Shown in pieces: positions 1,746 through 43,562 of a stretch of DNA of 64,000 nt. Origin of the DNA: Bacillota bacterium (GTDB lineage: Bacteria > Bacillota > Ch66 > Ch109). Under the pieces are notes generated by a model. It saw only the letters and a program-made list of their open reading frames with translations. It was not told the origin of the DNA and did no database searches. Location of the stretch: positions 928,001 through 992,000 of the forward strand of contig JBMNLH010000001.1 of assembly GCA_050952625.1 (NCBI GenBank), given 5' to 3'. Both the position numbers and the translations under genes were made by a program. Positions within the stretch are counted from its first letter, which is position 1, and every line of letters begins with the position of its first letter.

Positions 1746-3441
1746 ATGTTGATAGGGATTGATGTGGGAGGAACCTACACTGACGCAGCCCTTATCCAGA
1801 ATCGCCAAGTGTTACGCTGGGCTAAGACTCCAACTCGACCAGAATTGCTTTCGTCTTTATTAGAAGTTCTGGATCAGATTATGGAGGGTGTAGACCCATC
1901 GACTGTTAAACGAGTATCCCTTAGTACCACCCTGATTACGAATTTGATTGCTGAAGATAAAGTGGAGCCGGTAGCTTTGCTGGCTATTCCCGGGCCGGGG
2001 GTCAACCCGCATAGTTTTTCAGTTTTTGATAATGCCTATTTATTAAGTGGGGCAATTGATTATCGGGGTAGAGAAACAGCGAAACTTGTTCAGGCAGAAG
2101 TGGCAGAGGTTATTCGGAAGGTAGACCAAAAGGGATTTAACAAAGTCGCCGTTGTCGGCAAGTTCTCGGTCCGTAACAATCAACATGAGCAGGCAATAGC
2201 CAAGTATGTCGCTGATCATTACCCACATATCCAGGTTGAAATGGGACATCAAACAGCCGGTCAACTTAACTTTCCACGCCGAGCCGTCACCACCCAGTTA
2301 ACCGCGGCTACTCGACCGGCTTATCGGTGCTTTATTGACCAGATACGGGCAGCTCTTAAGGAACGTCGGATTGAGGCACCAGTCTACATTTTAAAGGCAG
2401 ATGGAGGCACCTTGCCTTTGGAAAAGGCAGTCGACGTCCCAGTAGAAACCATTTTTTCCGGACCGGCCGCTAGTACCATGGGGGTACTGGCACTGACACC
2501 GGCCGGTCAAACCTCTGTGGTTGTCGATATTGGGGGTACGACGACGGATTTGGCCTTGATCCTGTCCGGTAAACCGTTGCTGTCATCCAAAGGAGCTCGG
2601 GTTAAAGAGCATTTGACTCAGGTGCGAGCCTTTGCCGTGAAATCAGTCGCTTTGGGAGGAGACAGTGCTGTTCGGGTTAAGAACGGGTATTTAGAAGTAA
2701 GCCCGGAGCGAGTGGGGCCCGGCCTGCTGTTTGGGTGGATCAGTTCCAACGCCGACAGATGCCCTGCGGGTTTTGGGGTTGGCCGATATCGGCGAAGAGG
2801 CCTTAGCCCGGGCCGCGATTCGGGAGCTTTCGGCCAAGCTGTCTTCTGAGTTGGTCAGTTCGGAAGAGGACCCGGTTAAAGCTACGGCTAGGTTGGTCTT
2901 AAATATCGTAGTTGATCGAATGATTCGCGAAATTGAGGAGATGTTTTTGGCCTGGGAACAGGAACCAGCTTATCGAGTCTGGGAAATGATGCAAAAAGAA
3001 CGAGTTCGGCCACAAAACGTGGTAGGCGTGGGTGGATCAGCCTCTTCCCTGGTTCCGCTGGTAGCCGAGCGAATGGGTTGTGTGGGAATTATTCCAGAAC
3101 ACGCCCCGGTTGCCAATGCCCTAGGAGCGGCGGTGGCCCGGCCAACCCTAGGAATAACCTTGAGGGTTGATACTGAACAAGCGTTTTATTCAATCGCAGA
3201 AGACGGAACTCAGAAAAAATCAACCAAACTAAGTAAGTATCACCTTGAAGAAGCTCAGAATCTTGCCAAGCAGTTACTCAAGGAGCGGGCCGAACAGATG
3301 GGTCTAAGTGGCTACAGCCAGGAAGCAGAAGTGACGCATAGTGAATTGTTTAATATGATCCGGGGATGGAGCCGGGTTGGTCGACTGATTGATGTTGTCG
3401 TTCAGATACCAGCCGGGCTGATTCCGGAGTGGGTTGATTGA
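1746..3441 (+). pseudogene. Hydantoinase/oxoprolinase family protein with a frameshift near 2720 (real or sequencing error)
   Basis: GIDVGGTYTD and VVDIGGTTTD in ORF 1746-2849; GG..PTPTDAL and VANALGAA continue in the other frame (2731-3441); one extra base in GGGCCCGGCC. Confidence 0.85.
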
Positions 3442-8115: not shown

Positions 8116-9059
8116 AGCCTCTGGTGATTCTCGTGGGCCCTACCGCCACGGGAAAAAGCGCAGTCGCTATTGAGCTAGCCAGGCAGTTAAACGGAGAGAT
8201 TGTATCCGGCGACTCAACTCAGGTTTACCGAGGTTTGGATATAGGCACAGCCAAAGTTCCTCTGACCCAGAGGAAACTTGCGCCCCATCATTTAATAGAC
8301 ATTATTAATCCAGAAGATTCTTTTAGCGTCGCTGATTTTCAAAAAAGGGCAACTCAGGCCATTGAAGAGATTCACCAAAAAGGTAAGTTGCCGATCTTGG
8401 TGGGGGGAACTGGACTATATATTCGTTCTGTTGTGGATCCATATCAGTTTGCCGAAGTGGCCACTGATCTTTCGTTACGTCATTCGTTGCAGCAAGAAGC
8501 GATTCGGGTGGGTGAAGCCGAGATGCACCGGTGCCTGGGGGAGATTGATCCGCCGGCGGCTGAGCGAATTCACCCCGGAGATATTCGGCGAGTTATTAGA
8601 GCTCTAGAGGTCTATTACCTGACTGGTCAGCCTATTTCCAGTTTTCATCATCTCGGGAAGAAAACTGCTCAAAAGTACAACTCCGTTTGGATTGGTTTAA
8701 ATTTACCCAGAGAGCTGCTTTACCAAAGGATAGAGCGTCGTGTTGATGAAATGCTCGAAGCCGGTCTGGTAAACGAGGTGGAGAGGTTGCTGTCCCAGGG
8801 AGTAGATCCCGGAAGCAACTCAATGCAGGCCTTAGGTTATAAAGAGATTATCGGGTATCTAAAAGGAGAATATGATTTACCCACAGCAGTGAATTTAATT
8901 AAGCGGAATACCCGGCGCTTTGCCAAACGACAGTTGACCTGGTTTCGTCGGGATAGCCGAATTCATTGGTTTGACGTTGCCAGTTATCCCGATTTGCCGG
9001 AACTCATACAAAAAATATGTCTAGTTGTTGGCAGGACAATCAACATAAATGTAGAATAG
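8109..9059 (+). CDS. miaA: tRNA dimethylallyltransferase
   Basis: GPTATGKS, DSTQVYRGLDIGTAK, TRRFAKRQLTWF. Confidence 0.97.
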   Translation: MLKPLVILVGPTATGKSAVAIELARQLNGEIVSGDSTQVYRGLDIGTAKVPLTQRKLAPHHLIDIINPEDSFSVADFQKRATQAIEEIHQKGKLPILVGGTGLYIRSVVDPYQFAEVATDLSLRHSLQQEAIRVGEAEMHRCLGEIDPPAAERIHPGDIRRVIRALEVYYLTGQPISSFHHLGKKTAQKYNSVWIGLNLPRELLYQRIERRVDEMLEAGLVNEVERLLSQGVDPGSNSMQALGYKEIIGYLKGEYDLPTAVNLIKRNTRRFAKRQLTWFRRDSRIHWFDVASYPDLPELIQKICLVVGRTININVE

Positions 9060-10250: not shown

Positions 10251-11663
10251 TCAAGTTTCATAGTTGGGGTCGTTTTTCATTTCTTCCGGTGGCTGACCGT
10301 TTTCTAAGACCTTTACCATCGCTTCTAAACTGGAGTTGGCTAGAGCCCTTAACAGTGGTTGTTGGGTAGGCTGTCTTCCATTTTGTAGTTCTAAGGCAGC
10401 GGCTAAGGCCAGCCGGGCATTGCTTAATTGTTCGGTGGATAAGAAGATCATTGCCATGTGCTCGAGGCGTCGTTGGTAACTGAGCCTCAGTTCTTCTCCA
10501 AAGAGGTTCTCAATAATCCCCTGGACCAGTTTGGCTTGGAATTCTTGTAAAAAGGTTCCGGCAACCACAATTCGGCTTCGACGACGTTCTAATAGTTTTT
10601 GAGCGTAGTCACTTACTATAGATGGCTCAAGAAGCCAGTTCCTCATTTCCGGGGTTTGGACCAAATTCTCAGATAGAGGAAGTAAATAAGAGCGAGAGTC
10701 CTTTATTTCATCCAGGGATATGATTTCATAAACTGGGTGTTGAAGTCGAGCTTGCTCCGCGTCAGATACCTTAAAATAACGTCGCCAGGCGACAAAATCA
10801 AGCGGCAGAGGACTATTGCTCGCTTTATTTTTTTGTTCGTGAACCATTATTAGATAATTAAGGTATTCACGTTTAGTCGGAACCACCCGGATTCCGGTTG
10901 TCTTCAGATCCCATTCCGCTAGAAAACCAGATAGCTCCCGCTGGTTAAAGCTATAGATCCGGCAATCTTTTAGGCCAATCAAGTCATTCATCAGGATTAC
11001 CGCAGTTTCGAGTTTGCCTCCGGGAGAACGCATCACCAGAATACCCATAATATTACCGCTACCATCCAGGCTGGAAACATAGCTTTGCTGGTATTGCCGC
11101 TCAGCAGAAATGTTGAAGGCGGGCTTGGCTGGAGCCGAGTGCTCGATATTTGATTCGTTACTCTTTGCTACGGGAGCTACGGGAGTAATTCCAGCACTTT
11201 TCAGGTGGTGCAGAGAGCGGTTTAGTTCTTTTTTCAGCTCTTTCGTTATCGATGATTTTTCTAGATCCCATTGATTCTGCTCCACCATGCGGGTCAGGAT
11301 GAGGACCGCCTCTGGACACCGGATCAGACCGAGTGCTTGCACAGCAGCGATTACCACCTGCGGGTTAGGATGATGGACCGCTTTTTCCAGTAGTGGGAGT
11401 GATTTTTCCCCCTTTTCCCGGGCTAGAGCGAGCAATACTCGAGCAATGGTTTGATCGGGAAAACCCGACATCATTTGGAAGATCTGCTCGCTGTTGACTT
11501 GGTCTTTAACCATTTCCGCGTGCGTAGCTTCCAGCAGTCTTTGAGTTAAAACTGGGAATTCGTCTTTTGAGGTTGGACTAGATATCGCTCTATGGTTACT
11601 ACTAAAGCTGTCTTTTTGCTGTTTGCTATCTTTGCGGTAATTCTTTTTCAGTCTTTTAGACAT
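10251..11663 (-). CDS. HEAT-repeat-containing hypothetical protein
   Basis: Long ORF with RBS AGGAGG; VVIAAVQALGLIRCPEAV..L HEAT-like unit. Confidence 0.7.
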   Translation of the reverse strand: MSKRLKKNYRKDSKQQKDSFSSNHRAISSPTSKDEFPVLTQRLLEATHAEMVKDQVNSEQIFQMMSGFPDQTIARVLLALAREKGEKSLPLLEKAVHHPNPQVVIAAVQALGLIRCPEAVLILTRMVEQNQWDLEKSSITKELKKELNRSLHHLKSAGITPVAPVAKSNESNIEHSAPAKPAFNISAERQYQQSYVSSLDGSGNIMGILVMRSPGGKLETAVILMNDLIGLKDCRIYSFNQRELSGFLAEWDLKTTGIRVVPTKREYLNYLIMVHEQKNKASNSPLPLDFVAWRRYFKVSDAEQARLQHPVYEIISLDEIKDSRSYLLPLSENLVQTPEMRNWLLEPSIVSDYAQKLLERRRSRIVVAGTFLQEFQAKLVQGIIENLFGEELRLSYQRRLEHMAMIFLSTEQLSNARLALAAALELQNGRQPTQQPLLRALANSSLEAMVKVLENGQPPEEMKNDPNYET

Positions 11664-13279: not shown

Positions 13280-13321
13280 TCGCAACAGACATGGAATATC
13301 TCTGGGAAGAGGTGAGACTGG

Positions 13322-13953: not shown

Positions 13954-14808
13954 TTATATTAAATGTAGAATCCGGGCAGCATTTTGACCCAGAATTTTTT
14001 CCTTACTGGCTTCGGATATAGGTAATTCACGGATTTGCTGAATATTATTCTTAAGATCCGGGACGCCCGGCCAATCAGAAGCATAGATAATTTTATTAGC
14101 ATTACGTTCGAACTCGGGGAAGTAAGAAAGCAGCCGCTGGGGTGGCAAGCCGGCTATTTCCATATAGAGGTTTGGATGCAGTCGAGCCAAAAAGAAGGCT
14201 TGGTCATACCAAAATCCCCGTCCGCTGTGAACCATCAGCATATTTAGGTCTGGAAAATCTACCGCTAGATCGTCAAAGAATACCGGTTCGCCGTATTTGA
14301 GCCGCGCCCCTTTAAACACAGAGGATCCAGTATGAAACATGATCGGGATGCCTAGTTCCTGGGCTATTGAGTATAGGGGATAAAGCTTGTGATCATTAGG
14401 ATAGAAGTATTGGTAAGTAGGGTATAGTTTTAATCCCTTAAAACCTCGTTTAACCACTAACTCTTCAAGCAAACGAGCTGGACTAGTTTCCAAATAGGGA
14501 TTAATACAAGCAAAAGGGATCAGAGAGTCGTGTCCCTGACAAAATTCTTCGACTTGCTCATTAGTCGCTATTCCAGTCGTAATCGGCGATATCTCTGCCA
14601 AAATAACAGCGTAATCTACCCCGGATTCTTTTAGGAATTTAATAAATGTGTCCGGCTTTTTATATGTTTCGCGGTATTCGTCAAAAGATACCGGGTTCAT
14701 TCTCTTCATCCATGCCAGAGTGGAGGGGCTAAACCATTCGTAGTCTACCAGATGGACGTGGAAATCGATAACCAGGGATCGGTTAATTGATTGCTTTACA
14801 GGCTCCAT
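13954..14808 (-). CDS. Amidohydrolase_2 family protein
   Basis: IDFHVH, GLKLYP, FHTG, VHSG, YASDWP. Confidence 0.9.
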   Translation of the reverse strand: MEPVKQSINRSLVIDFHVHLVDYEWFSPSTLAWMKRMNPVSFDEYRETYKKPDTFIKFLKESGVDYAVILAEISPITTGIATNEQVEEFCQGHDSLIPFACINPYLETSPARLLEELVVKRGFKGLKLYPTYQYFYPNDHKLYPLYSIAQELGIPIMFHTGSSVFKGARLKYGEPVFFDDLAVDFPDLNMLMVHSGRGFWYDQAFFLARLHPNLYMEIAGLPPQRLLSYFPEFERNANKIIYASDWPGVPDLKNNIQQIRELPISEASKEKILGQNAARILHLI

Positions 14809-35475: not shown

Positions 35476-35580
35476 AGTGAACTCGTTCAGCTTCGCTGAA
35501 CATCGAGGCGTCAGGTGGAGACTCTACTCCACCTGACGTTTGAACAAGAAAACCCCCACTTATAGAAGTAGGGGTCTTTT
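35476..35580. mobile_element. Palindromic MITE-like element with IS200/IS605-type end hairpin, copy 1
   Basis: GTTCAGC/GCTGAAC, CGTCAGGTGGAG/CTCCACCTGACG and ACCCC.ACTT/AAGT.GGGGT hairpins; other copies at 52146 and 57755. Confidence 0.7.
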
Positions 35581-35632
35581 AAACTCAGATAAATTCTCGA
35601 GGACCTGCTTCATCGCAAAGCAAACTCTTTAA

Positions 35633-36631
35633 TTATTCTCGACCATAAGCTTTAGGCAGCCGGCCACTGGTCACTGATTCGGCCCGTAATTGACGACCAA
35701 CGATCCGTTCGACCATTGCTCCCAGATCAAGGAGTTTATCAACGTCTATTCCGGTTTCGATGCCCATTCCATCCAGCATTACCACCAGGTCTTCGGTGCA
35801 GACGAGGCCGGTTCGGCTAGGATCGGAGTAATAGTACTTACCGGTTCCAGATACCGGAACTCCATCGATAAAGTTAGCCGGTTGGCCACCAATACCACCC
35901 AAAGTAGCGTCGAAACAGGCAATCCCTGCCTGCATTGCGGCTAAGACATTAGCCAAGCCCCAGCCTCGGGTAACGTGAAAGTGGGCAACGTGCCTTTCCG
36001 GATGCGGGTCACGGTCCAGGACCTTGGCGAAGTATTCATAAATCTTATCAGGACTGGCCTGACCATCATGGTCAGCGTGGCAGACATCGTCAACTCCCAT
36101 CTTTAACAGCCGGTCGGTAAAGTCTACTGCCCAGTCCATCGGGACCGGACCAGCAATTGGGCAGCCCCAGATGGTACTAACTGTAACTGAGAATTTAATC
36201 CCGGCATCGCGCGAAAGTTGCAACCACTTTTCGATATTGGCCCAGTGTTCGGTAATCGGCCTTCCCGCATTAACCAGGTTGTGAGCCTCACTCGTCGAGA
36301 TAGTCACTGAAATCCGGTCCGGGCCATATCCGGCTTCCTTATCTTTAATTGCGTCCATTACTGCTCGTTCAGTCATGGTTACGACGGTGTATTCCATTCC
36401 GGGAACCCGTTTGATTCGCTTCATCAGTTCATGGGCATCCTTGAATTGAGGCATCCGTTTGGGATTGCCAAAGTTTGATACCTCAATTTTTTTAAAACCG
36501 GCATCAACCAAGGCATCCAGAACATACATCTTGGCATCAGTGGGAATAAACTTCTCTTCGTGTTGGAAACCATCGCGGGCGGTGATGTCACAAACATGGA
36601 CAAACTTGGGCAGATTGGCAAATGGGTTCAT
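35633..36631 (-). CDS. Hydroxymethylglutaryl-CoA lyase-like (DRE-TIM metallolyase)
   Basis: RDGFQHE, HFHVTRG, GGIGG, TEDLV. Confidence 0.88.
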   Translation of the reverse strand: MNPFANLPKFVHVCDITARDGFQHEEKFIPTDAKMYVLDALVDAGFKKIEVSNFGNPKRMPQFKDAHELMKRIKRVPGMEYTVVTMTERAVMDAIKDKEAGYGPDRISVTISTSEAHNLVNAGRPITEHWANIEKWLQLSRDAGIKFSVTVSTIWGCPIAGPVPMDWAVDFTDRLLKMGVDDVCHADHDGQASPDKIYEYFAKVLDRDPHPERHVAHFHVTRGWGLANVLAAMQAGIACFDATLGGIGGQPANFIDGVPVSGTGKYYYSDPSRTGLVCTEDLVVMLDGMGIETGIDVDKLLDLGAMVERIVGRQLRAESVTSGRLPKAYGRE

Positions 36632-36815
36632 GTAATTAAACTCGCTCCTTTCAAGCCTCTCGTGTAAAACTGATTAGGTTTGCGTTTTCCGGCTTATTGC
36701 TTACTGATTCTACAAATAAAGCACTTTTTCCTGCTAGCGGATAGGAAGAGTTGTCAAAGAAGATTGAAAAATCAAGCGGGTAAAACACAGGTATCAATTA
36801 GTTGTTAATTGCAAA

Positions 36816-36839
36816 TAACCCGCCTATACCGGCGGGTTA
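36816..36839. terminator. Hairpin downstream of the sigK 3' half (probable sigK terminator)
   Basis: TAACCCGCC-N6-GGCGGGTTA. Confidence 0.65.
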
Positions 36840-36908
36840 AATTATGATTTAGCAGTAAGGGCAATTCAGTTTTATAATATAATGGACCGAATATTATCAA
36901 ACGAATAA

Positions 36909-37202
36909 TTATGGTTTGTATTTATTGGATGGGGAATCCATTGACAGTTCGCGCATCAGTTTTTGAATGGCTCGCTTCTCAATCCGACTAACATAACTCC
37001 TGGAGATTCCTAACATCCTAGCTATTTCTCGCTGGGTTTTTCGAAAACTGTTAAACAATCCAAAACGTAAGACTAGGACGTTTCTTTCGCGTGGGGATAG
37101 TCGTTTGACTCTTTCACGTAATCGGTCTTCCTCAAAACGTCCCTCTACTGTCTCTTGAACTATCTCCGGTTCAGTGCCTAGAACATCTAGCAGGGTGATT
37201 TC
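36909..37202 (-). CDS. sigK: sigK 3' half (spoIIIC equivalent; regions 3-4), no start codon, missed by the ORF track
   Basis: Hand translation: EITLLDVLGTEPE...LSPRERNVLVLRFGL...KTQREIARMLGISRSYVSRIEKRAIQKL; 97 codons then TAA. Confidence 0.95.
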   Translation of the reverse strand, partial: EITLLDVLGTEPEIVQETVEGRFEEDRLRERVKRLSPRERNVLVLRFGLFNSFRKTQREIARMLGISRSYVSRIEKRAIQKLMRELSMDSPSNKYKP

Positions 37203-37231
37203 GTTAACCTCTCCATGTTATCTATTGTATT
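37180..37231 (-). other. attR-like site (P-GA-B'), core GA at 37202-37201
   Basis: Minus strand ATAGATAACATGGAGAGGTTAAC-GA-AATCACCCTGCTA. Confidence 0.88.
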
Positions 37232-37247
37232 AACCCGAGACAAAAGA

Positions 37248-37510
37248 CTACTTTTTATAAATGTCTCCGCGTGGCCCGATGACCTCAATAATTATTAATT
37301 GATCTTCAATTATAAGGTCATAAATAATCCGTATGTCGCCAATGCGACCCCTGTACTTCTGATTAAAGCCCCGTAACTGCTTAATATTTGTCCGCTGAGG
37401 GGATCAACGGAAATGGCTTCAATTGCAGCCGCAATACGTTTTTGGGTAGCCCTATCAACACGTTTAAGATAGTTGCGAGGCTGAGCTAACAGCTTGACCT
37501 CATAGGTCAA
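37248..37510 (-). pseudogene. RelE/ParE toxin, frameshifted
   Basis: MTYEVKL...RIAAAIEAI..DP, then in a shifted frame IKQLRG...YRGRIGDIRIIYD...IGPRGDIYK. Confidence 0.85.
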
Positions 37511-37877
37511 GTTCTCGTTTGAGCTCATCCCAGCTAACGCCACCTTTCCGACGTTGTTCCTTACTCAAGGCTGCTATTTCATTTTCTGGCCAATCTAAGT
37601 AAATAGTATCTTGGCAGGAAGGGCAGATGAATTCATCATGCCAGGTTTTAGTTTCATCCGTGTTTGGATTATCCAGTAGATCAGCTAACACTAGGGGTGT
37701 GCTGCATGTGGTACAAAACGGGTCAATGTAGAAGGGGCTGCTCCCAGGCCGTGGTATGACCGCACTTTCTGGTTGTACCCTTTCTACTAGTTTTTCAAGA
37801 TACTTTTTGGCTCTCTCTATGTTTTGCTCCGGAAGCCTAGCAACTAGGCGGTAAAGCTCTTCCTTGGGTAAGCTCAT
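37500..37877 (-). CDS. Probable antitoxin with CxxC...CxxC insertion
   Basis: KEELYRLVARLPE N-terminus, GVSWDELKREL C-terminus, overlaps the toxin start. Confidence 0.7.
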   Translation of the reverse strand: MSLPKEELYRLVARLPEQNIERAKKYLEKLVERVQPESAVIPRPGSSPFYIDPFCTTCSTPLVLADLLDNPNTDETKTWHDEFICPSCQDTIYLDWPENEIAALSKEQRRKGGVSWDELKRELDL

Positions 37878-38026
37878 TAAAAATCATCCCTTCTGCTTTT
37901 CCCATTTTTTCTACCTTTCCCACAGTACTTTAGGTAGTTTTACCCCCTTCAACAATTAATCCAGTCTCTGGAGAGTAGCGTACATAATTATATTACCAAT
38001 TAGTTACTATAACTGTAAATTATAAT

Positions 38027-39598
38027 TCATATTAATAGATAAACATTAAGCGTAAAGTTATCAAGCCTTGCGCTTTTTTCTTTATAATACACGGCTTTAT
38101 CTACGATAGTTTTAAGTAGTGTATTTTTCTTTACTACATCGTCGGTGGCTTGGTAAGCGTCCAGGACATGCCGAATGGTCGGGATGATCTGCTGGTGGGT
38201 GCGCTCCCGTTCCTCAATTTCATTTATTTCATCCTGAACCTGTTGCAGAGACTTGCTCGCGGCCTCGATCCTCTCAGTAACAATCTTATTGCGTTCAAGG
38301 TAGGTGGGTATATCATAGACACCCTGTTCCAGAAGGTCCTGGAGGCGTGACTTTTGCTTTTGCAGTTCCTCTAGCTGCCTGGTCAAGTTCTCGATAACCG
38401 AATTAGGTATAAGCGGTTCAGCCGTGGCCGCTATCTCCCGGGCCAGTTGCTCCTGGTTCAGTTCTAAGTTTGCTAACTCTTCCTCCAAGGTTTGCAACAA
38501 CCTTTTTTCAACAAAACTGAAAAGGGACGATTTGTTGTCACATCCTGCATGGATGCATTTACACATATTAGATTTGTGTCCGGACTTTTGTTTATTGGAT
38601 TGTAAAACCATTCGGCGTCCGCATTTGCCACAAACGATCAGACCGGCTAAAGGATTTTTAGGTTTCGTCTTTGTGCGCACAACAGTATTTTTTTTAAGGT
38701 TGTTTTGTGCAGCATAAAAAATATCCTTCTCGATTAAAGGTTCATGCTTCCCTTCTACATCAATCCACTGCTCCCTGGGACGAGCATAACCTATTTTACG
38801 GGATCGATCCCGATATTTCTTTTTCCACTGAATTCGTCCGATATAAACCTCATTGCTAAGTATAAAACGAACAACAGAAGGTTCCCAAACACCTCCTCTA
38901 ACCGGGCTTTTAACCTTCATTTCATTTAATCGATTAGCAATTCTAGTACTGCCAATAGGGTTGCCATCGTTACCATTAACGTACCAGTTATAAATTAGAC
39001 GAACAATTTCAGCATCTTTATTGGGGATCAGGACCTTATCAGGCCCTCGATCGTAGCCAAAAGGGGGACGGGTCCCGATATACTTCCCGTCCTTAACCGC
39101 CATTACCCGACCCCGTTGAAGACGCTTGTTGATAATCTTCAGTTCCCGTCTAGCCATGAAAGCCTCGAATTCGCTCCATTCTTCATCGAGCTCATCATCC
39201 AAGTCATACACCTTCCGAGGGGTAATGATGAGGGTAGAGGAGGCTTTAAACGCCGCCAGAATGGTCCCCTGATCAATCATGTCGCCCCGTCCAAGCCGGT
39301 CCAGATCCATGCATAGGACCGCATCATATTCACCCGCTTCAACTTCATGGAGGAGGCGTTGCATTTCTGGACGGTCTGATATATGTTCGCCACTAACAAT
39401 TTCTTCGAAAATGGATACTACGTTAAGACGGTTGCGCTGGGCCAGTTCGGTAAGAGCTTTGCGATGCTTAGATAAAGTATCACCTTCACCCCGAGATTCA
39501 GCTTCAAAATCTGCCCGGGATTTACGAAGATACATGGCTACTTTATTAAGATCACGAGGAAAATCGGCTGGCAAGATAAACACCCCTGACGATAACAT
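38027..39598 (-). CDS. spoIVCA: Large serine recombinase, SpoIVCA-like (likely start TTG 39574)
   Basis: YLRKSR catalytic Ser, DRLGR, PFGY, Y.G recombinase domain, GLIVCGKCG zinc ribbon, coiled coil; intact. Confidence 0.92.
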   Translation of the reverse strand: MLSSGVFILPADFPRDLNKVAMYLRKSRADFEAESRGEGDTLSKHRKALTELAQRNRLNVVSIFEEIVSGEHISDRPEMQRLLHEVEAGEYDAVLCMDLDRLGRGDMIDQGTILAAFKASSTLIITPRKVYDLDDELDEEWSEFEAFMARRELKIINKRLQRGRVMAVKDGKYIGTRPPFGYDRGPDKVLIPNKDAEIVRLIYNWYVNGNDGNPIGSTRIANRLNEMKVKSPVRGGVWEPSVVRFILSNEVYIGRIQWKKKYRDRSRKIGYARPREQWIDVEGKHEPLIEKDIFYAAQNNLKKNTVVRTKTKPKNPLAGLIVCGKCGRRMVLQSNKQKSGHKSNMCKCIHAGCDNKSSLFSFVEKRLLQTLEEELANLELNQEQLAREIAATAEPLIPNSVIENLTRQLEELQKQKSRLQDLLEQGVYDIPTYLERNKIVTERIEAASKSLQQVQDEINEIEERERTHQQIIPTIRHVLDAYQATDDVVKKNTLLKTIVDKAVYYKEKSARLDNFTLNVYLLI

Positions 39599-39610
39599 CT
39601 TTATCTATTG

Positions 39611-39640
39611 TTATTCGTCGAGGAGAGGGGAATTCCTGCA
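39611..39640 (-). promoter_or_regulatory. SigmaH-type promoter of the recombinase
   Basis: GCAGGAATT-N14-GAATAA. Confidence 0.65.
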
Positions 39641-39641
39641 G

Positions 39642-39836
39642 TTACTTCCTTAACTCCAAGCGTAGCTGAATCAGTACCAACCGCAATTTCCCCATAAGTC
39701 TAATCAATTCCTCCCATAAGCGAAACTGGGTCAACGGGGAGCCAGTAAATGTTTGCTCGTTTGATAACCACCTGGCCAGCCCGAGTGTTCTTTCGACACG
39801 TGGATCGCTAGGTAAAACATCAGTCCTTTTCATCAT
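39642..39836 (-). pseudogene. ImmA/IrrE-like metalloprotease N-terminal remnant
   Basis: LPSDPR...ARWL, then shifted frame NIYWLPVDPVSL; position between integrase and repressor remnant. Confidence 0.45.
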
Positions 39837-40027
39837 AAATTCCTTGAATCCCTAGTAAATAGATTGGAAGTAGAATGTTAGGTTAATTACTAAACTTTAA
39901 TCGATCTCAAATTAGAAGTGCCTATATAAATATAAAAACCTGTCTTTTTATTATCCACAGGTTTTCAGTCGTATATCTATTTAATTTATCTAATCCTGTT
40001 AATTTCTGAATGTTTAATGACATTTTC

Positions 40028-40135
40028 TCACGCTGCCTTATTCACAAGAGCTAGGGCCTTTATCAACTTTTTTCGGTCCCATAATTCAATGTTAGAGTTT
40101 TTGGCTTCTTTCTGAGCCTGTTCAGATAAGCGAGT
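40028..40135 (-). pseudogene. C-terminal remnant of an Mrr-type restriction endonuclease
   Basis: LSEQAQKEAKNSNIELWDRKKLIKAL*. Confidence 0.55.
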
Positions 40136-40180
40136 CTTAATGTTTTTTTCGTTTTCTTGTCAGTCAAGAGAAATCGTGTA

Positions 40181-40372
40181 TTACTTTAACCGCTTAAGAA
40201 TAACGACTTCCTCTTCCTGGGTGGATAAGCGTTTGTCAATTCTTTTGATATCTTCCCAAACGTAACGGAGTTCATTTTTTATTGACGTTACATCTGCTTG
40301 GAGTAACTTTTGGCCTTCGGCCAATGTCTGGAGTTGTTGTAGTACAAGCTCCTGGAATTTCCCGTTATCCAT
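40181..40372 (-). CDS. Small coiled-coil phage-like protein (63 aa)
   Basis: AAAGGAG RBS, MDNGKFQELVLQQL... Confidence 0.6.
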   Translation of the reverse strand: MDNGKFQELVLQQLQTLAEGQKLLQADVTSIKNELRYVWEDIKRIDKRLSTQEEEVVILKRLK

Positions 40373-40409
40373 AGCAATCTCCTTTCTGGTGCCCGATACG
40401 GATCTCAAT

Positions 40410-40470
40410 TTAACGCGGCCAAGGAGATAATCGGGCGATACATTAAAAAAGTCAGCAATAACTAAACATA
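40410..40470 (-). pseudogene. Deletion remnant of an XRE-family repressor
   Basis: RBS plus ATG-TTT-AGT joined out of frame to IADFFNVSPDYLLGR. Confidence 0.6.
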
Positions 40471-40646
40471 GCATCACCTTCCAGTTTATTATACTCACAT
40501 AATGTAAGTAAAACAACGCTCCTCACGTAAGTGAAAATAATTTGAATATGGGGCCCGACTGCTTTCGATCTGTGAGTATAATAACAAATAAAGTTGCTTA
40601 CTAAAAATATCCATGATTGGAGGTAATCACTTACAAAACACACGGT

Positions 40647-40674
40647 TTGTCCTTGACCGACAACTGCATAGATC
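40647..40674 (+). promoter_or_regulatory. Mother-cell-type -10 (CATAGAT) with SpoIIID-like box
   Basis: CATAGATC at 40667; AAGGACAA (WWRRACAR) on the minus strand at 40647-40654; -35 weak. Confidence 0.4.
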
Positions 40675-40693
40675 AGTAGTGGGTGATGCCTTC

Positions 40694-40870
40694 ATGAAAC
40701 CGGAGATTAAGCTGGTCGGCGAAAAGAAAATAGAACGGACAACAATCCGCGTATTCCGTCCAGAGCTAAGTTTTGAAGAGCGAGAGTTTCGAATGAAGTT
40801 ACTGCACACTGCCGTTGCGGACTGCTATCGTTCGTCGACGAATCGGGTAGAGGGTAGCGGCACTAGTTGA
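40694..40870 (+). CDS. 58-aa protein, candidate recombination directionality factor
   Basis: GGGTGA RBS; TTIRVFRPELSFEEREFRMK; small intact gene among decayed ones. Confidence 0.55.
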   Translation: MKPEIKLVGEKKIERTTIRVFRPELSFEEREFRMKLLHTAVADCYRSSTNRVEGSGTS

Positions 40871-40910
40871 GGAGTACAAGATAGGTTGTACTAAGATAAG
40901 AATTTACGAA

Positions 40911-40945
40911 TTAAATTTTATGCATCACTAATGTAGCCTGATTAT
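40911..40945. repeat. Repeat end plus left copy of 12-bp inverted repeat (TAGCCTGATTAT, 40934-40945)
   Basis: Reverse complement ATAATCAGGCTA at 42069-42080. Confidence 0.75.
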
Positions 40946-41145
40946 CTTCTTCAGTACCGACACTTGGCCGGCTCCGAAACTATCAAAAAACCAATTACTC
41001 CCCCTAGAATCAAACTAATAATTGTGTTCTCAATCACGTTTAAACACCCTCTCTTTTTGATTTCACCTTATAAGCCCATCCGGAATAAACTGTAATTAAA
41101 CGCCAGGGTTTTTTCTCCAATTGATTTCCACATTTATCCTTCGAT

Positions 41146-41182
41146 TTGGACAGGCACTAGTTTACGATAACAACCATATTAT
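41146..41182 (+). promoter_or_regulatory. sigK promoter (sigmaK/sigmaE type) with SpoIIID box
   Basis: TTGGACAG (WWRRACAR) at 41146, AC at 41156, 17-nt spacer, CATATTAT at 41175. Confidence 0.75.
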
Positions 41183-41216
41183 GTAGAGCAAGCTCCGCTT
41201 CAAAGGGGGATTAAAT

Positions 41217-41647
41217 GTGTACCTGGATCTTACGACACCCTGGTTATCCTTTTGTTTTCCTGGATTGCTCCTTTTAGTTGGATATATCACTAATCAAACT
41301 TTCCCGCATCCACTGTCCGAAGATCAAGAAACATCATGCCTTCGACGTTTTCGCAATGGCGATGAGGAGGCTAGAAATTTACTTATTGAACATAATCTTC
41401 GGCTCGTCGCGCATATTTTAAAAAAATTTGATGGAACTGGCGAAGATACCGATGATCTTATTTCTATTGGAACCATTGGATTGATTAAAGCAATCAACAC
41501 CTTCGATCCAGATAAAGGTGCTAAACTAGCCACTTATGCTGCCCGTTGCATCGAAAACGAGATCCTAATGCATTTACGAGCATCACGGAAAAATAAAGGT
41601 GAGGTATCCCTATACGATCCTATTGGCACGGATAAAGAAGGTAATGA
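41217..41647 (+). CDS. sigK: sigK 5' half (spoIVCB equivalent) with pro-sequence; reads through to a stop at 41726 in this orientation
   Basis: [67 protein letters not shown]. Confidence 0.96.
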
Positions 41648-41676
41648 GTTAAGCTTGCTAAGTTATCTATCAATTT
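41625..41676 (+). other. attL-like site (B-GA-P'), core GA at 41646-41647
   Basis: GATAAAGAAGGTAAT-GA-GTTAAGCTTGCTAAGTTATCTAT. Confidence 0.88.
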
Positions 41677-41755
41677 ACTGTGGTCAAAAAGTCCCAGGCC
41701 AGCGGGCACAGGAGCGTTTTTCATAGTAAGGCCAGTGCAATTTGTAAGTATTAAC

Positions 41756-42045
41756 TAATTATAGCTTAACTTATTAAATTTAACTGTTTTTAATTTATTG
41801 CTAATATATCCAATAATACCTTTCCCCTGATTTGTCACACGGAATGAAAAAAGTCTCAAGCCTCCAGGTGTTATACGGACGTGCCAAGAAAACAATAGTT
41901 TTTCTCCGTCGATTCCGGTAAACGTATGCTCGTCTTTAAAACGAATTATTGTTTCTGGGCTTTCTGGAGTAAACTTACTTGAAAATTGACTAGGGTCAAA
42001 TTTTCCAGGTTGCCATCTAGTAAATTATTTGTTTAACTCATCTAA
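41756..42045 (-). pseudogene. Fragment of a hypothetical cargo protein beyond attL
   Basis: LDELNK*FTRWQPGKF...TPESPET...TF...FSWHVRITPG...IGYI; internal stop, no start. Confidence 0.5.
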
Positions 42046-42051
42046 TTAAAA

Positions 42052-42080
42052 AGTTTAATGCAACACTAATAATCAGGCTA
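42052..42080. repeat. Repeat end plus right copy of 12-bp inverted repeat
   Basis: TTTAATGCAACACTA followed by ATAATCAGGCTA. Confidence 0.75.
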
Positions 42081-42162
42081 ACGAAAGATTCTTAAACTCA
42101 ACTGGAATCTATGGTTGACTTGAGGCAATGTTTGGATGATGTTATAATGATAAACGAATTGC

Positions 42163-42693
42163 ATGGAGGGTATCGTTTTGAAGAAGAAAATCATCCAGTT
42201 GCTGAGACCGAAGCTTTTTGTCAGATCAATAACGGATGTTACTCCGGACATCCTTGATTCTTTTCAGGTTAAAGGGATTATCATAGACCTGGATAATACC
42301 CTTACTCCATGGCAAAGCGAGTTTTTAGCCCCAGATAATATTCGTTGGCTCAATACTATTAAGAGCCACGGTTTTCAAGTCTGTCTAGTTAGTAATAATA
42401 AGGGCGAAAGAATAAAGAAGATTGCCAGCATCTTGGATATTCCTTTTGTGGCCAAGGCCTCTAAACCCCGGCGACGGGCTTTCTTAAAGGGAATGAAAGC
42501 CATTGGGACTAAGCCTCAAGAAACAGCAGTAATTGGCGATCAGGTTTTTACTGATGTTTTAGGCGGAAACAGACTTGGGCTATGCACGATACTCGTCGAC
42601 CCTTTAAGTTCATATGAATTTGTTGGGACCCGTTTAATGCGGATTCCCGAGCGAGCGGTGCTAAACCTAATTCGGAGGCCGAATAAGTTATGA
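42163..42693 (+). CDS. yqeG: YqeG family HAD IIIA phosphatase
   Basis: DLDNTL, VSNN, KP, IGDQVFTDVLGGNR. Confidence 0.93.
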   Translation: MEGIVLKKKIIQLLRPKLFVRSITDVTPDILDSFQVKGIIIDLDNTLTPWQSEFLAPDNIRWLNTIKSHGFQVCLVSNNKGERIKKIASILDIPFVAKASKPRRRAFLKGMKAIGTKPQETAVIGDQVFTDVLGGNRLGLCTILVDPLSSYEFVGTRLMRIPERAVLNLIRRPNKL

Positions 42694-43562
42694 GCAAAAG
42701 GAAAGAAATAACTGGTGTGACTGAAATATTTGGGGTGATGGGCTATCCGGTAGCCCATTCGCTATCTCCGGCCATACAAAATAAGGCATTTGATTATTAT
42801 GAATTAGATAAGATTTATTTGGCTTTTGCTGTACCCCCCAACTGCCTGACTCAAGCCTTGAATGGTTTAAGGGCTTTAGGCGTAATCGGGGTTAATGTCA
42901 CCTTGCCCTATAAAGAGGCTGTAGCCAGACAGGTCGATCTCCTTTCTCCAGAGGCCCAATTGATTGGGGCGGTAAATGTCTTGCGTTTTGACCAGGATCG
43001 TTTGGTTGGTCATAATACCGACGGTACCGGATTTCTGCAGTCACTTGAACAAGATGCTGGCTTTACGCCTGCCGGAAAAAAGGTTCTGGTTCTAGGGGCT
43101 GGCGGAGCAGCGAGAGCAGTTACTTTGACCCTGGCTCGATTTGGGGCGGCGCATATAAGCATAGCCAATCGAACTCGAAAACGGGCTACGGAACTGGCGA
43201 CAGAAGTTGAGGCAAGAACTGGCCTAAAAGCAGTGGGGCTAAGCTTAGAACCAAGTGAACTGAAACCCTGGGTTCCCGAGGCGGATTTGGTGATTCAAGC
43301 TACCTCGGTTGGTTTATACCCAAAGGGTGAATCGCCAAGTTGGTTTAATCCGGATTGGCTATCGCCAACTGCGTTAGTCTGCGATCTCATTTATCGGCCT
43401 CGACCCTCTGAGTTTTTAAAGAGGGCTGCTTTAAGAGGATGTCGTACCTTAGACGGGTTAGGCATGCTCTTATATCAAGGGGCGCAATCTTTCACCTGGT
43501 GGACGGGTTTGGAAGCACCGGTCGACGTAATGCGGCAGTCATTGTTAAAACAGCTTGGCTGA
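42690..43562 (+). CDS. aroE: Shikimate dehydrogenase
   Basis: HSLSP, NVTLPYK, NTDG.G, GAGGAARA, GLGMLLYQG. Confidence 0.96.
   Translation: MSKRKEITGVTEIFGVMGYPVAHSLSPAIQNKAFDYYELDKIYLAFAVPPNCLTQALNGLRALGVIGVNVTLPYKEAVARQVDLLSPEAQLIGAVNVLRFDQDRLVGHNTDGTGFLQSLEQDAGFTPAGKKVLVLGAGGAARAVTLTLARFGAAHISIANRTRKRATELATEVEARTGLKAVGLSLEPSELKPWVPEADLVIQATSVGLYPKGESPSWFNPDWLSPTALVCDLIYRPRPSEFLKRAALRGCRTLDGLGMLLYQGAQSFTWWTGLEAPVDVMRQSLLKQLG

Follow-up and report, generated by a model that had tools for sequence, protein, structure and literature searches.

By what rearrangement can a sigK gene be restored when its two halves lie on opposite strands of the chromosome? The question is raised by a stretch of 64,000 nucleotides from a Bacillota bacterium (contig JBMNLH010000001.1 of assembly GCA_050952625.1; hereafter the window, to which positions refer unless another locus is named), in which sigK is interrupted by an element that carries a large serine recombinase (LSR) of the SpoIVCA kind. 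The element is probably a skin-type sigK-intervening element which works by inversion, not by excision. A first-pass annotation of the same letters had proposed a reversible toggle between attL/attR and attB/attP attachment (att) sites, and its claims are taken up below where the results bear on them.

Results

Split of sigK and geometry of the locus

The 5' half of sigK, coding for the pro-sequence and region 2, was located at 41217-41647 on the + strand, where it ends with ...DKEGNE at the core GA; it was matched by Sigma70_r2 (1.6e-19) and by positions 12-149 of TIGR02846. The 3' half (EITLLDVLG..., region 4, with the stop codon) was located at 37202-36909 on the - strand by using TIGR02846 (positions 138-226), the translation and the alignment with a congener. 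The gene is split at the conserved GNE codons, after ...DKEGNE, which is the insertion site of skin elements. In the arrangement of the window, designated OFF, the frame of the 5' half continues into unrelated codons and stops at 41726. The region upstream of sigK with its promoter (40934-41216, + strand) accompanies the 5' half and was aligned with positions 1170-1451 of the congener locus.

That congener (genome G001, locus L097), a member of the genus to which the organism of the window belongs, carries an intact sigK of 239 aa without recombinase or element, to which the 5' half of the window is 95% identical. No second sigK was found in the 2.9-Mb genome of the window, the next-best sigma genes being sigE- or sigG-like with at most 55% identity. 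The rates of non-synonymous and synonymous substitution (dN/dS) against the congener were 0.020/0.300 and 0.010/0.120 for the two halves, respectively, and 0.009/0.166 for a neighbouring gene; as judged from these values, both halves are under purifying selection, with dN/dS near 0.07-0.09. Spo0A, SpoIIID and SpoIVA were detected in the genome, each above the curated cut-off.

The core dinucleotides of the two att-like sites lie in opposite orientation (TC at 37201-37202 and GA at 41646-41647), so that recombination between them inverts the intervening DNA and does not excise it, and since the halves are inverted together with the cores, they could not be joined by excision. Skin elements leave as a circle between an attL and an attR of direct orientation, an arrangement which was not found at this locus. 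Judged by the positions and strands of the sites and halves, only inversion of 37203-41647 restores sigK. This invertible segment comprises 4,445 bp when one core copy is counted and includes the sigK promoter region. In the product of such an inversion the sigK halves would be joined on the - strand and attP would be formed beside 41648. The earlier proposal that attB, i.e. the intact sigK, and attP would both stay on the chromosome after inversion agrees with these positions and strands.

Attachment sites and crossover

On the + strand from 41640 to 41670, the last letters of the 5' half are GGTAATGA and the next are GTTAAGCTTGCTAAGTTATCTAT (41648-41670); on the - strand from 37225 to 37194, ATAGATAACATGGAGAGGTTAAC precedes the 3' half, which begins with GAAATCACC. 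The attL-like site (41617-41677, + strand) is accordingly composed of a B arm, the core GA at 41646-41647 and a P' arm at 41648-41670, and the attR-like site (37171-37231, - strand) of a P arm at 37225-37203, the core GA at 37202-37201 (TC on the + strand) and a B' arm.

When the two non-coding arms were joined by a script, an inverted repeat was obtained at 18 of 23 positions around GA (binomial P = 1.4e-7 for the fixed register), with the outer 9 and the inner 5 positions perfect and the middle matching at 4 of 9. The joined strings and the 9-bp outer and 5-bp inner repeats read by the first-pass annotation were therefore correct. The same arm pair was listed as direct repeat D3 by a repeat search, and the exact 9-mer ATAGATAAC occurs in 2 copies on both strands of the 64 kb, both at the arms. 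A scan for contiguous 23+2+23 symmetry at every position of the window gave a maximum of 15/23, at 3 places, and none of 16 or above.

The dinucleotide GA is the centre of the symmetry and the sole in-register stretch common to both sites, T or C standing before it and G or A after it. Joined across GA, the halves read GGT AAT GA|A ATC, which codes for GNEI; the congener has these residues in its intact sigK, and its two sigK alignment blocks overlap by just 6 nt, at GA. Every site recovered from other genomes has GA at the anchor, including those of all loci with both halves (12/12); since these sites were anchored on the codons which tblastn aligned to the half ends, with a homologous position assumed, this is evidence of site conservation and not an independent mapping of the cut. 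As far as the letters can tell, GA as the crossover, which had been claimed from the repeat structure, is well supported. The further claim of an AATGA core held for one site: AATGA is present at 41643-41647 of the 5' site, in agreement with the B. subtilis site described in PMC10745906, but the second site reads AACGA, so that GA alone is common to both and a 5-bp repeat is not formed.

By eye, GATAA is found at -20 to -16 in the P arm and at -15 to -11 in the B arm, i.e. with a shift of 5 bp, which the right-hand B' arm shows weakly. According to a rule ascribed to Rutherford et al. 2013, the half-sites of attP and attB reportedly differ by a 5-bp motif spacing, and the GATAA shift in these letters appears to match this rule of serine integrases. 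The sites thus display the features of LSR att sites, namely a length of about 50 bp, an imperfect dyad around a 2-bp crossover and motifs shifted between attP and attB; on the side of sigK, their arms are unlike each other.

The arm motif (ATAGATAAA) was also seen with one mismatch at 38035-43 and 39600-08, where the recombinase gene stops and starts, the two copies lying in inverted orientation. Altogether 24 one-mismatch matches were counted in the window against 14.4 expected, a number which was reached by 2 of 100 shuffles and could be due to chance.

Recombinase

The recombinase gene is located at 38027-39598 on the - strand, with a longest open reading frame (ORF) of 523 aa and a start probably a few codons further in. 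It lies about 800 bp from the sigK 3' half on the same strand, and in many genomes a relative of it stands beside a split sigK. The domains Resolvase (PF00239), Recombinase (PF07508) and Zn_ribbon_recom (PF13408), which define LSRs, were all detected above their cut-offs, the catalytic-serine motif YLRKSR (S27) was invariant in alignment A1, and the comparison with the SPbeta integrase structure 9dxh gave an E value of 4e-53. The protein lacks the features of small invertases (about 190 aa, a C-terminal helix-turn-helix and two like sites), and its score with the Mpi model NF009949, 30.7 bits, is below the cut-off of 272.

Candidate directionality factor

An ORF of 85 aa (40613-40870, + strand; start uncertain) is the sole small ORF of the element for which homologues were found elsewhere, and its conserved synteny and a complex model make it a candidate recombination directionality factor (RDF). 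Homologues with 40-47% identity stand beside the recombinase in loci L016 (9720-9926), L017 (9736-9915) and L101 (6319-6564), and weaker ones in 7 further loci and in L057 (12266-12499). The family shares the core KIGNTTIxVxAPxISEEER, and its genes are mostly divergent from those of the SpoIVCA-like recombinases. In the 2.3-kb element of L016, this is the only ORF family, the recombinase aside, which recurs beside related recombinases, and its member is flanked by the P arm and the start of the recombinase. The 85-aa ORF was not assigned to any family of Pfam, NCBIfam or PHROG, a profile search of the PDB with its family gave hits at chance level (E of 0.15 or worse), tblastn (E 0.01) detected no similarity to it in two C. 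difficile loci, and a likeness to a named RDF was not found.

In the complex model of recombinase residues 305-523 with the 85-aa ORF, a score of 0.77 was obtained (0.75-0.78 in three runs) versus 0.00 for the best of 3 controls; the mark of the tool was reached by 58 of 80 solved complexes and by 2 of 110 mismatched pairs, a calibration that is only roughly valid with the custom alignments used here. The runs agreed in at least 82% of contacts, with a predicted local distance difference test (pLDDT) value of the partner of at least 61. The modelled contacts involve recombinase residues 362-374 and 467-498 and the C-terminal tail 512-523, of which the former two are taken as the two ends of the coiled coil. 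The model supports binding of the predicted 85-aa protein to the recombinase, at the coiled-coil base and the C-terminal tail; from the synteny and the model together, we propose this protein as the RDF of the recombinase, and its family may represent a widespread RDF family of sigK elements.

Another small ORF, of 64 aa (39642-39836), lies upstream of the recombinase and was considered as an RDF like Skr; it was set aside because it had no homologue in the fetched loci and no family. The DNA that separates a truncated XRE gene from the 85-aa ORF contains an inverted repeat of 14 nt without mismatches (TTATTATACTCACA / TGTGAGTATAATAA; 40486-40499 and 40571-40584). Each copy holds a TATAAT-like box, and the arrangement resembles a phage-type divergent-promoter operator whose repressor has been lost.

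Related loci and other inverted layouts

Homologues of the recombinase were numbered in thousands, and the best 80 loci from species genomes were searched with both sigK halves; these relatives were chosen by recombinase similarity and do not constitute a census of split sigK. An intact sigK beside the recombinase was found in 0 of the 80 loci. Any sigK half that was recovered ends or starts at the same codons as in the window. The P' arms of the relatives end with TTATCTRT at +16 to +23 and their P arms have ACAGATAA at the position that mirrors it, so that, by comparison of these sites, the crossover position and the arm motifs are common to the sigK elements of many Bacillota.

Among the loci with both halves, 10 of 12 have them on one strand, i.e. 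in the excision type, and 2 of 12 on opposite strands. The former include L016 (Thermoanaerobacterales bacterium 50_218) and L017 (a Bacillota metagenome-assembled genome), which carry the closest recombinases, with 67% and 65% identity, respectively. Both are like the window in the GA junction, in similar arms and in the same small ORF family beside the recombinase, but differ from it in having the halves on one strand in a 2.3-kb element of the excision type without decayed phage-like genes.

Of the two inverted loci, L057 belongs to the complete genome of Petroclostridium sp. X23, with attL at 11582 (-) and attR at 13296 (+); its invertible segment of 1.7 kb contains the 5' half and the RDF-like ORF, the recombinase stands just outside, and these parts are intact. 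In L035, from Shimazuella soli, the last two pieces of sigK are in the inverted layout, with attR at 8915 (+) and attL at 14743 (-); the N-terminal piece covers residues 112-144 only, so that sigK is in more than two pieces. The reconstructed arms are symmetric by eye in both loci. On this comparison, the inverted layout in L057 and L035 is independent of that in the window.

In several of the loci L099 (genome G004), L100 (genome G003), L026, L101, L035 and L048, the 5' part of sigK was seen to stop early, after ...CIENE near residues 112-119, and in L101 near residues 65-67. A separate short piece covers residues 112-144, so these genomes would have sigK in at least three pieces, and additional insertion sites in it. 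The 5' part of G004 is divergent to the gene which follows sigK in the congener.

For a contiguous phage attP, the best sites in Terrisporobacter phage TVCOM_ph1 (1 of 27 phage records with a related integrase) reached 16/23 and contained no GATAA/TTATC; the integrase of this phage probably targets another gene.

Extra DNA relative to the congener

Three blocks of the congener locus L097 were aligned with the window: positions 1-1181, with aroE and a gene for a HAD phosphatase, matched 43248-42069 (reversed, 95%); positions 1170-1882, with the sigK promoter and 5' half, matched 40934-41647 (91%); and positions 1877-3380, with the 3' half and a gene for an HMG-CoA-lyase-like protein, matched 37206-35703 (reversed, 95%). 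Relative to the congener, the extra DNA of the window is in two blocks, 37203-40933 and 41648-42068, of 4,152 bp in total, a feature which the first-pass annotation had missed and which has a bearing on the origin of the layout. The second block (+ strand), consisting of the P' arm and 398 bp, lies outside the invertible segment and is absent from the congener. Inversion would unite the two blocks in one, flanked by the sigK promoter on one side and the phosphatase gene on the other, and attP would lie 421 bp from the right end of this block.

A 12-bp repeat, TAGCCTGATTAT, marks both outer limits of this extra DNA, with one copy at 40934-40945 (+ strand) and the other, its reverse complement, at 42069-42080 (- strand); the congener has a single copy. 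About 20 nt of similar sequence also stand just inside these limits, at 40911-40932 and 42049-42070. In the ON orientation, these ends look like inverted terminal repeats next to a duplicated target of 12 bp, or like a second site of the att type. From the letters, two histories fit the layout: insertion of an attP-carrying element upstream of sigK, followed by integrase inversion between attP and attB, or insertion of a canonical skin element, followed by a second inversion at the 12-mer.

Further contents of the element are a gene for a RelE/ParE-like toxin (37248-37543, - strand), with a frameshift near 37395-37400 and a phrog_1213 match of 1.5e-6 on the 3' piece; upstream of it an ORF of 125 aa with a CxxC...CxxC pattern (37500-37877, - strand), which had weak hits only and no family and is possibly the antitoxin partner; and the remnant of an XRE-type repressor gene (40181-40516, - strand), of which the helix-turn-helix tail is left (phrog_8, transcriptional regulator, 2e-5).

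Metagenome contigs

The organism was found in anaerobic-digester and bioreactor metagenomes, with 18 runs containing half or more of the words sampled from it, and its genome is a metagenome assembly of 9 contigs. Contigs of four metagenome runs (X1, X9, X14 and X12, from four studies, 2016-2025) were aligned to positions 35500-43500 of the window. The whole stretch is covered by X1, from which the assembly may have been made and which alone bridges the junction 42068/42069. The junctions 37202/37203, 40933/40934 and 41647/41648 are crossed as in the window by contigs of the three further runs and studies (X12 record 11; X14 records 18 and 22; X9 records 30 and 31). No ON junction was seen in any contig, which, at a depth of 3-9, shows OFF to be the predominant form and no more.

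A loose end of X1 at 41648 was considered as the ON form and rejected, as it continues as the intact sigK of another organism, with different downstream letters. In addition, a contig of X9 joins 42068-GTG-39979 and another enters at 42046 from unlike sequence, and both contigs point to a second strain, or a variant of the element, in which the same ends enclose different DNA.

Discussion

Proposed mechanism and alternative explanations

In the mechanism which we favour, the germline chromosome of vegetative cells and spores would carry sigK as two halves on opposite strands. The recombinase, together with a small directionality factor (the 85-aa ORF is proposed), would pair the attL-like and attR-like sites, cut at the central GA and flip the segment 37203-41647, which would place the halves in one frame (GNE|ITLL) downstream of sigK's own promoter and leave attP 4.4 kb away on the same chromosome. 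As nothing would be excised, the element could not be lost by its own reaction, and the recombinase alone could turn ON back to OFF. Several observations weigh against this mechanism. The cargo of the element is decayed, the RelE-like toxin gene being frameshifted and the XRE repressor truncated; no convincing sporulation promoter was seen by eye upstream of the recombinase or the 85-aa ORF, and the latter is preceded by what resembles a sigma-A type -10 box within the 14-nt inverted repeat. The complex model is a prediction, made with a recombinase related to the solved SPbeta integrase, and because SPbeta integrase-RDF structures exist, its score may partly reflect likeness to solved complexes. 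Sporulation of the organism, which is known only from metagenomes, is presumed. Finally, no ON junction, either as intact sigK or as attP, was found among the contigs of the four runs, an absence which is weak since contigs drop rare variants and the depth was 3-9.

The first-pass annotation had gone further and suggested reversible or heritable sigK states, i.e. a rewritable phase switch in which inversion would proceed both ways in growing cells, so that lineages with sigK ON or OFF would arise, or the locus would be reset when sporulation is aborted. We consider such a switch unlikely. It would be served by attB and attP staying in cis after inversion, by the inversion of attB/attP plasmids by CD1231 alone and the reported constitutive expression of CD1231 (PMC5025042), and by the sigma-A-like -10 box, with no obvious sporulation promoter, before the 85-aa ORF; but all junction-bridging contigs of the four runs, sampled over 2016-2025, are OFF, none of the 80 related loci has an intact sigK beside the recombinase, and the systems already known rearrange their DNA only in the mother cell, which is a terminal cell (PMC4191935). 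Moreover, an ON state would be expected to have little phenotype in growing cells. This follows from the fact that in B. subtilis the transcription of sigK and the processing of pro-sigma-K are both controlled by sporulation. The claim of heritable states was therefore not borne out. The narrower claim, that integrase alone could reset the locus to OFF, is an expectation which agrees with the geometry and with published plasmid assays, in which CD1231 alone recombined attP and attB in inverted orientation in E. coli (PMC5025042).

The locus could also be a dead end, namely an excision-type skin element which was scrambled by a rearrangement at the 12-bp repeat, with sigK no longer rebuildable and the lineage asporogenous or becoming so. 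The extra DNA in two blocks bounded by the 12-bp repeat points to a second event, pseudogenes are present inside the element, and the ON form is missing from the contigs; nevertheless, LSRs are indifferent to site orientation in inversion assays (PMC12286644; PMC5025042), so that the inverted layout is still a working substrate. Furthermore, the recombinase, both arms, the sigK halves and the RDF-like ORF are intact, with the low dN/dS of the halves given above, the sporulation master genes are intact, the layout was stable in the runs from 2016 to 2025, and two other lineages have this layout too, with their parts intact, all of which make a dead end improbable. A mis-oriented segment in the assembly has to be considered for any metagenome-assembled genome, and this one was obtained in 9 contigs from bioreactor metagenomes. 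Such an artefact is very hard to reconcile with the agreement of three further runs and studies at the three junctions which their contigs cross, and the two sites share only 18 of 23 arm positions, which is too little to mislead an assembler.

Beyond inversion by a skin-type element, a wider proposal can be made, although we hold it to be doubtful: the locus might be a natural two-state integrase memory, in which recombinase with RDF would set ON and recombinase alone would set OFF, so as to restore cells that flipped early or aborted sporulation to the germline state without the element ever being lost by itself. The change from excision to inversion would then be a ratchet which locked the element into its host, and would have occurred at least three times in Bacillota.

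Significance of the locus

The rebuilding of sigK by excision of skin is the textbook programmed rearrangement of bacteria, and a version by inversion would never release the element. As the product sites would be 4.4 kb apart in cis, a back-reaction by integrase alone should be efficient, and the upkeep of ON would therefore depend on the RDF blocking attP x attB. The locus would thus serve as a natural test of directionality control and as a natural counterpart of engineered integrase memory devices. The recombinase, which is compact, the candidate RDF, whose family has no name, and four defined att sites may be of use as parts, and a cultured organism with the same layout is at hand in Petroclostridium sp. 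X23. These points are relevant to research on sporulation, mobile elements and integrase tools.

Comparison with known systems

The skin element of B. subtilis is excised by SpoIVCA with the RDF Skr (PMC6957869); AATGA is given as the mark of its recombination site, and in B. cereus strains sigK is interrupted at nt 423 (PMC10745906). It is like the window in the split of sigK at the GNE codons, in its large serine recombinase and in its inverted-repeat arms; it needs a small RDF, a part for which the window offers the 85-aa ORF as a candidate. It differs in its size of 48 kb and in its directly oriented sites, by which it leaves as a circle, whereas the sites of the window are inverted and nothing would leave. 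The gene of Skr and spoIVCA are on one strand and overlap at the 5' end of the latter, whereas the candidate of the window is divergent and about 1 kb away; SpoIVCA and Skr were set beside the recombinase and the 85-aa ORF by published description.

The element skinCd of C. difficile is excised by CD1231 with CD1234, and CD1231 alone recombines attB x attP (PMC5025042). Its junction ...DKEGNE|IS... (L079) and its recombinase, which is 45% identical and stands beside the 3' half on the same strand, are like those of the window, but it has 14.6 kb and is excised, and the inversion by CD1231 was that of an engineered plasmid substrate and not of a natural locus. In a survey of 15 skin elements (bioRxiv 10.1101/2022.02.25.481979), the orientation varies, and the available text does not mention inverted halves. 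In the literature searched, the coverage of which excludes most subscription journals, neither a description of sigK inversion nor a natural invertible switch of an LSR with its RDF was found.

Restoration of split genes by inversion is described for the heterocysts of Calothrix sp. NIES-4101, in which nifH1, nifB and hypF are rebuilt (PMC11249958). As in the window, parts of the genes are on the reverse strand and serine recombinases, there XisF-like, are nearby, and the cell is terminally differentiated; unlike the window, the host is a cyanobacterium, other genes are concerned, the inverted repeats are short and identical, and XisH/XisI-like accessory factors take part (PMC11249958).

The small invertases Hin, Gin and Mpi resemble the system of the window in that a serine recombinase flips a segment and thereby switches a gene. 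These enzymes have about 190 aa, act on two like sites with an enhancer and run freely in both directions. The enzyme of the window is unlike them in its LSR recombinase and zinc-ribbon domains and in the unlike arms of its sites. Engineered integrase memory comes close in layout; in the original paper on rewritable memory, the integrase is said to set the state and the integrase with RDF to reset it. Inverted att pairs with or without RDF are the standard assay of inversion and the standard memory design (PMC12286644), and the first-pass annotation had likened the locus to such memory switches. Such devices have, like the window, inverted att sites around a segment, the integrase setting attB x attP to attL x attR and the integrase with RDF resetting attL x attR (PMC12286644; PMC7102980). 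The devices are man-made and flip a promoter, whereas the flip in the window would rebuild a coding sequence, and its resting state is attL/attR.

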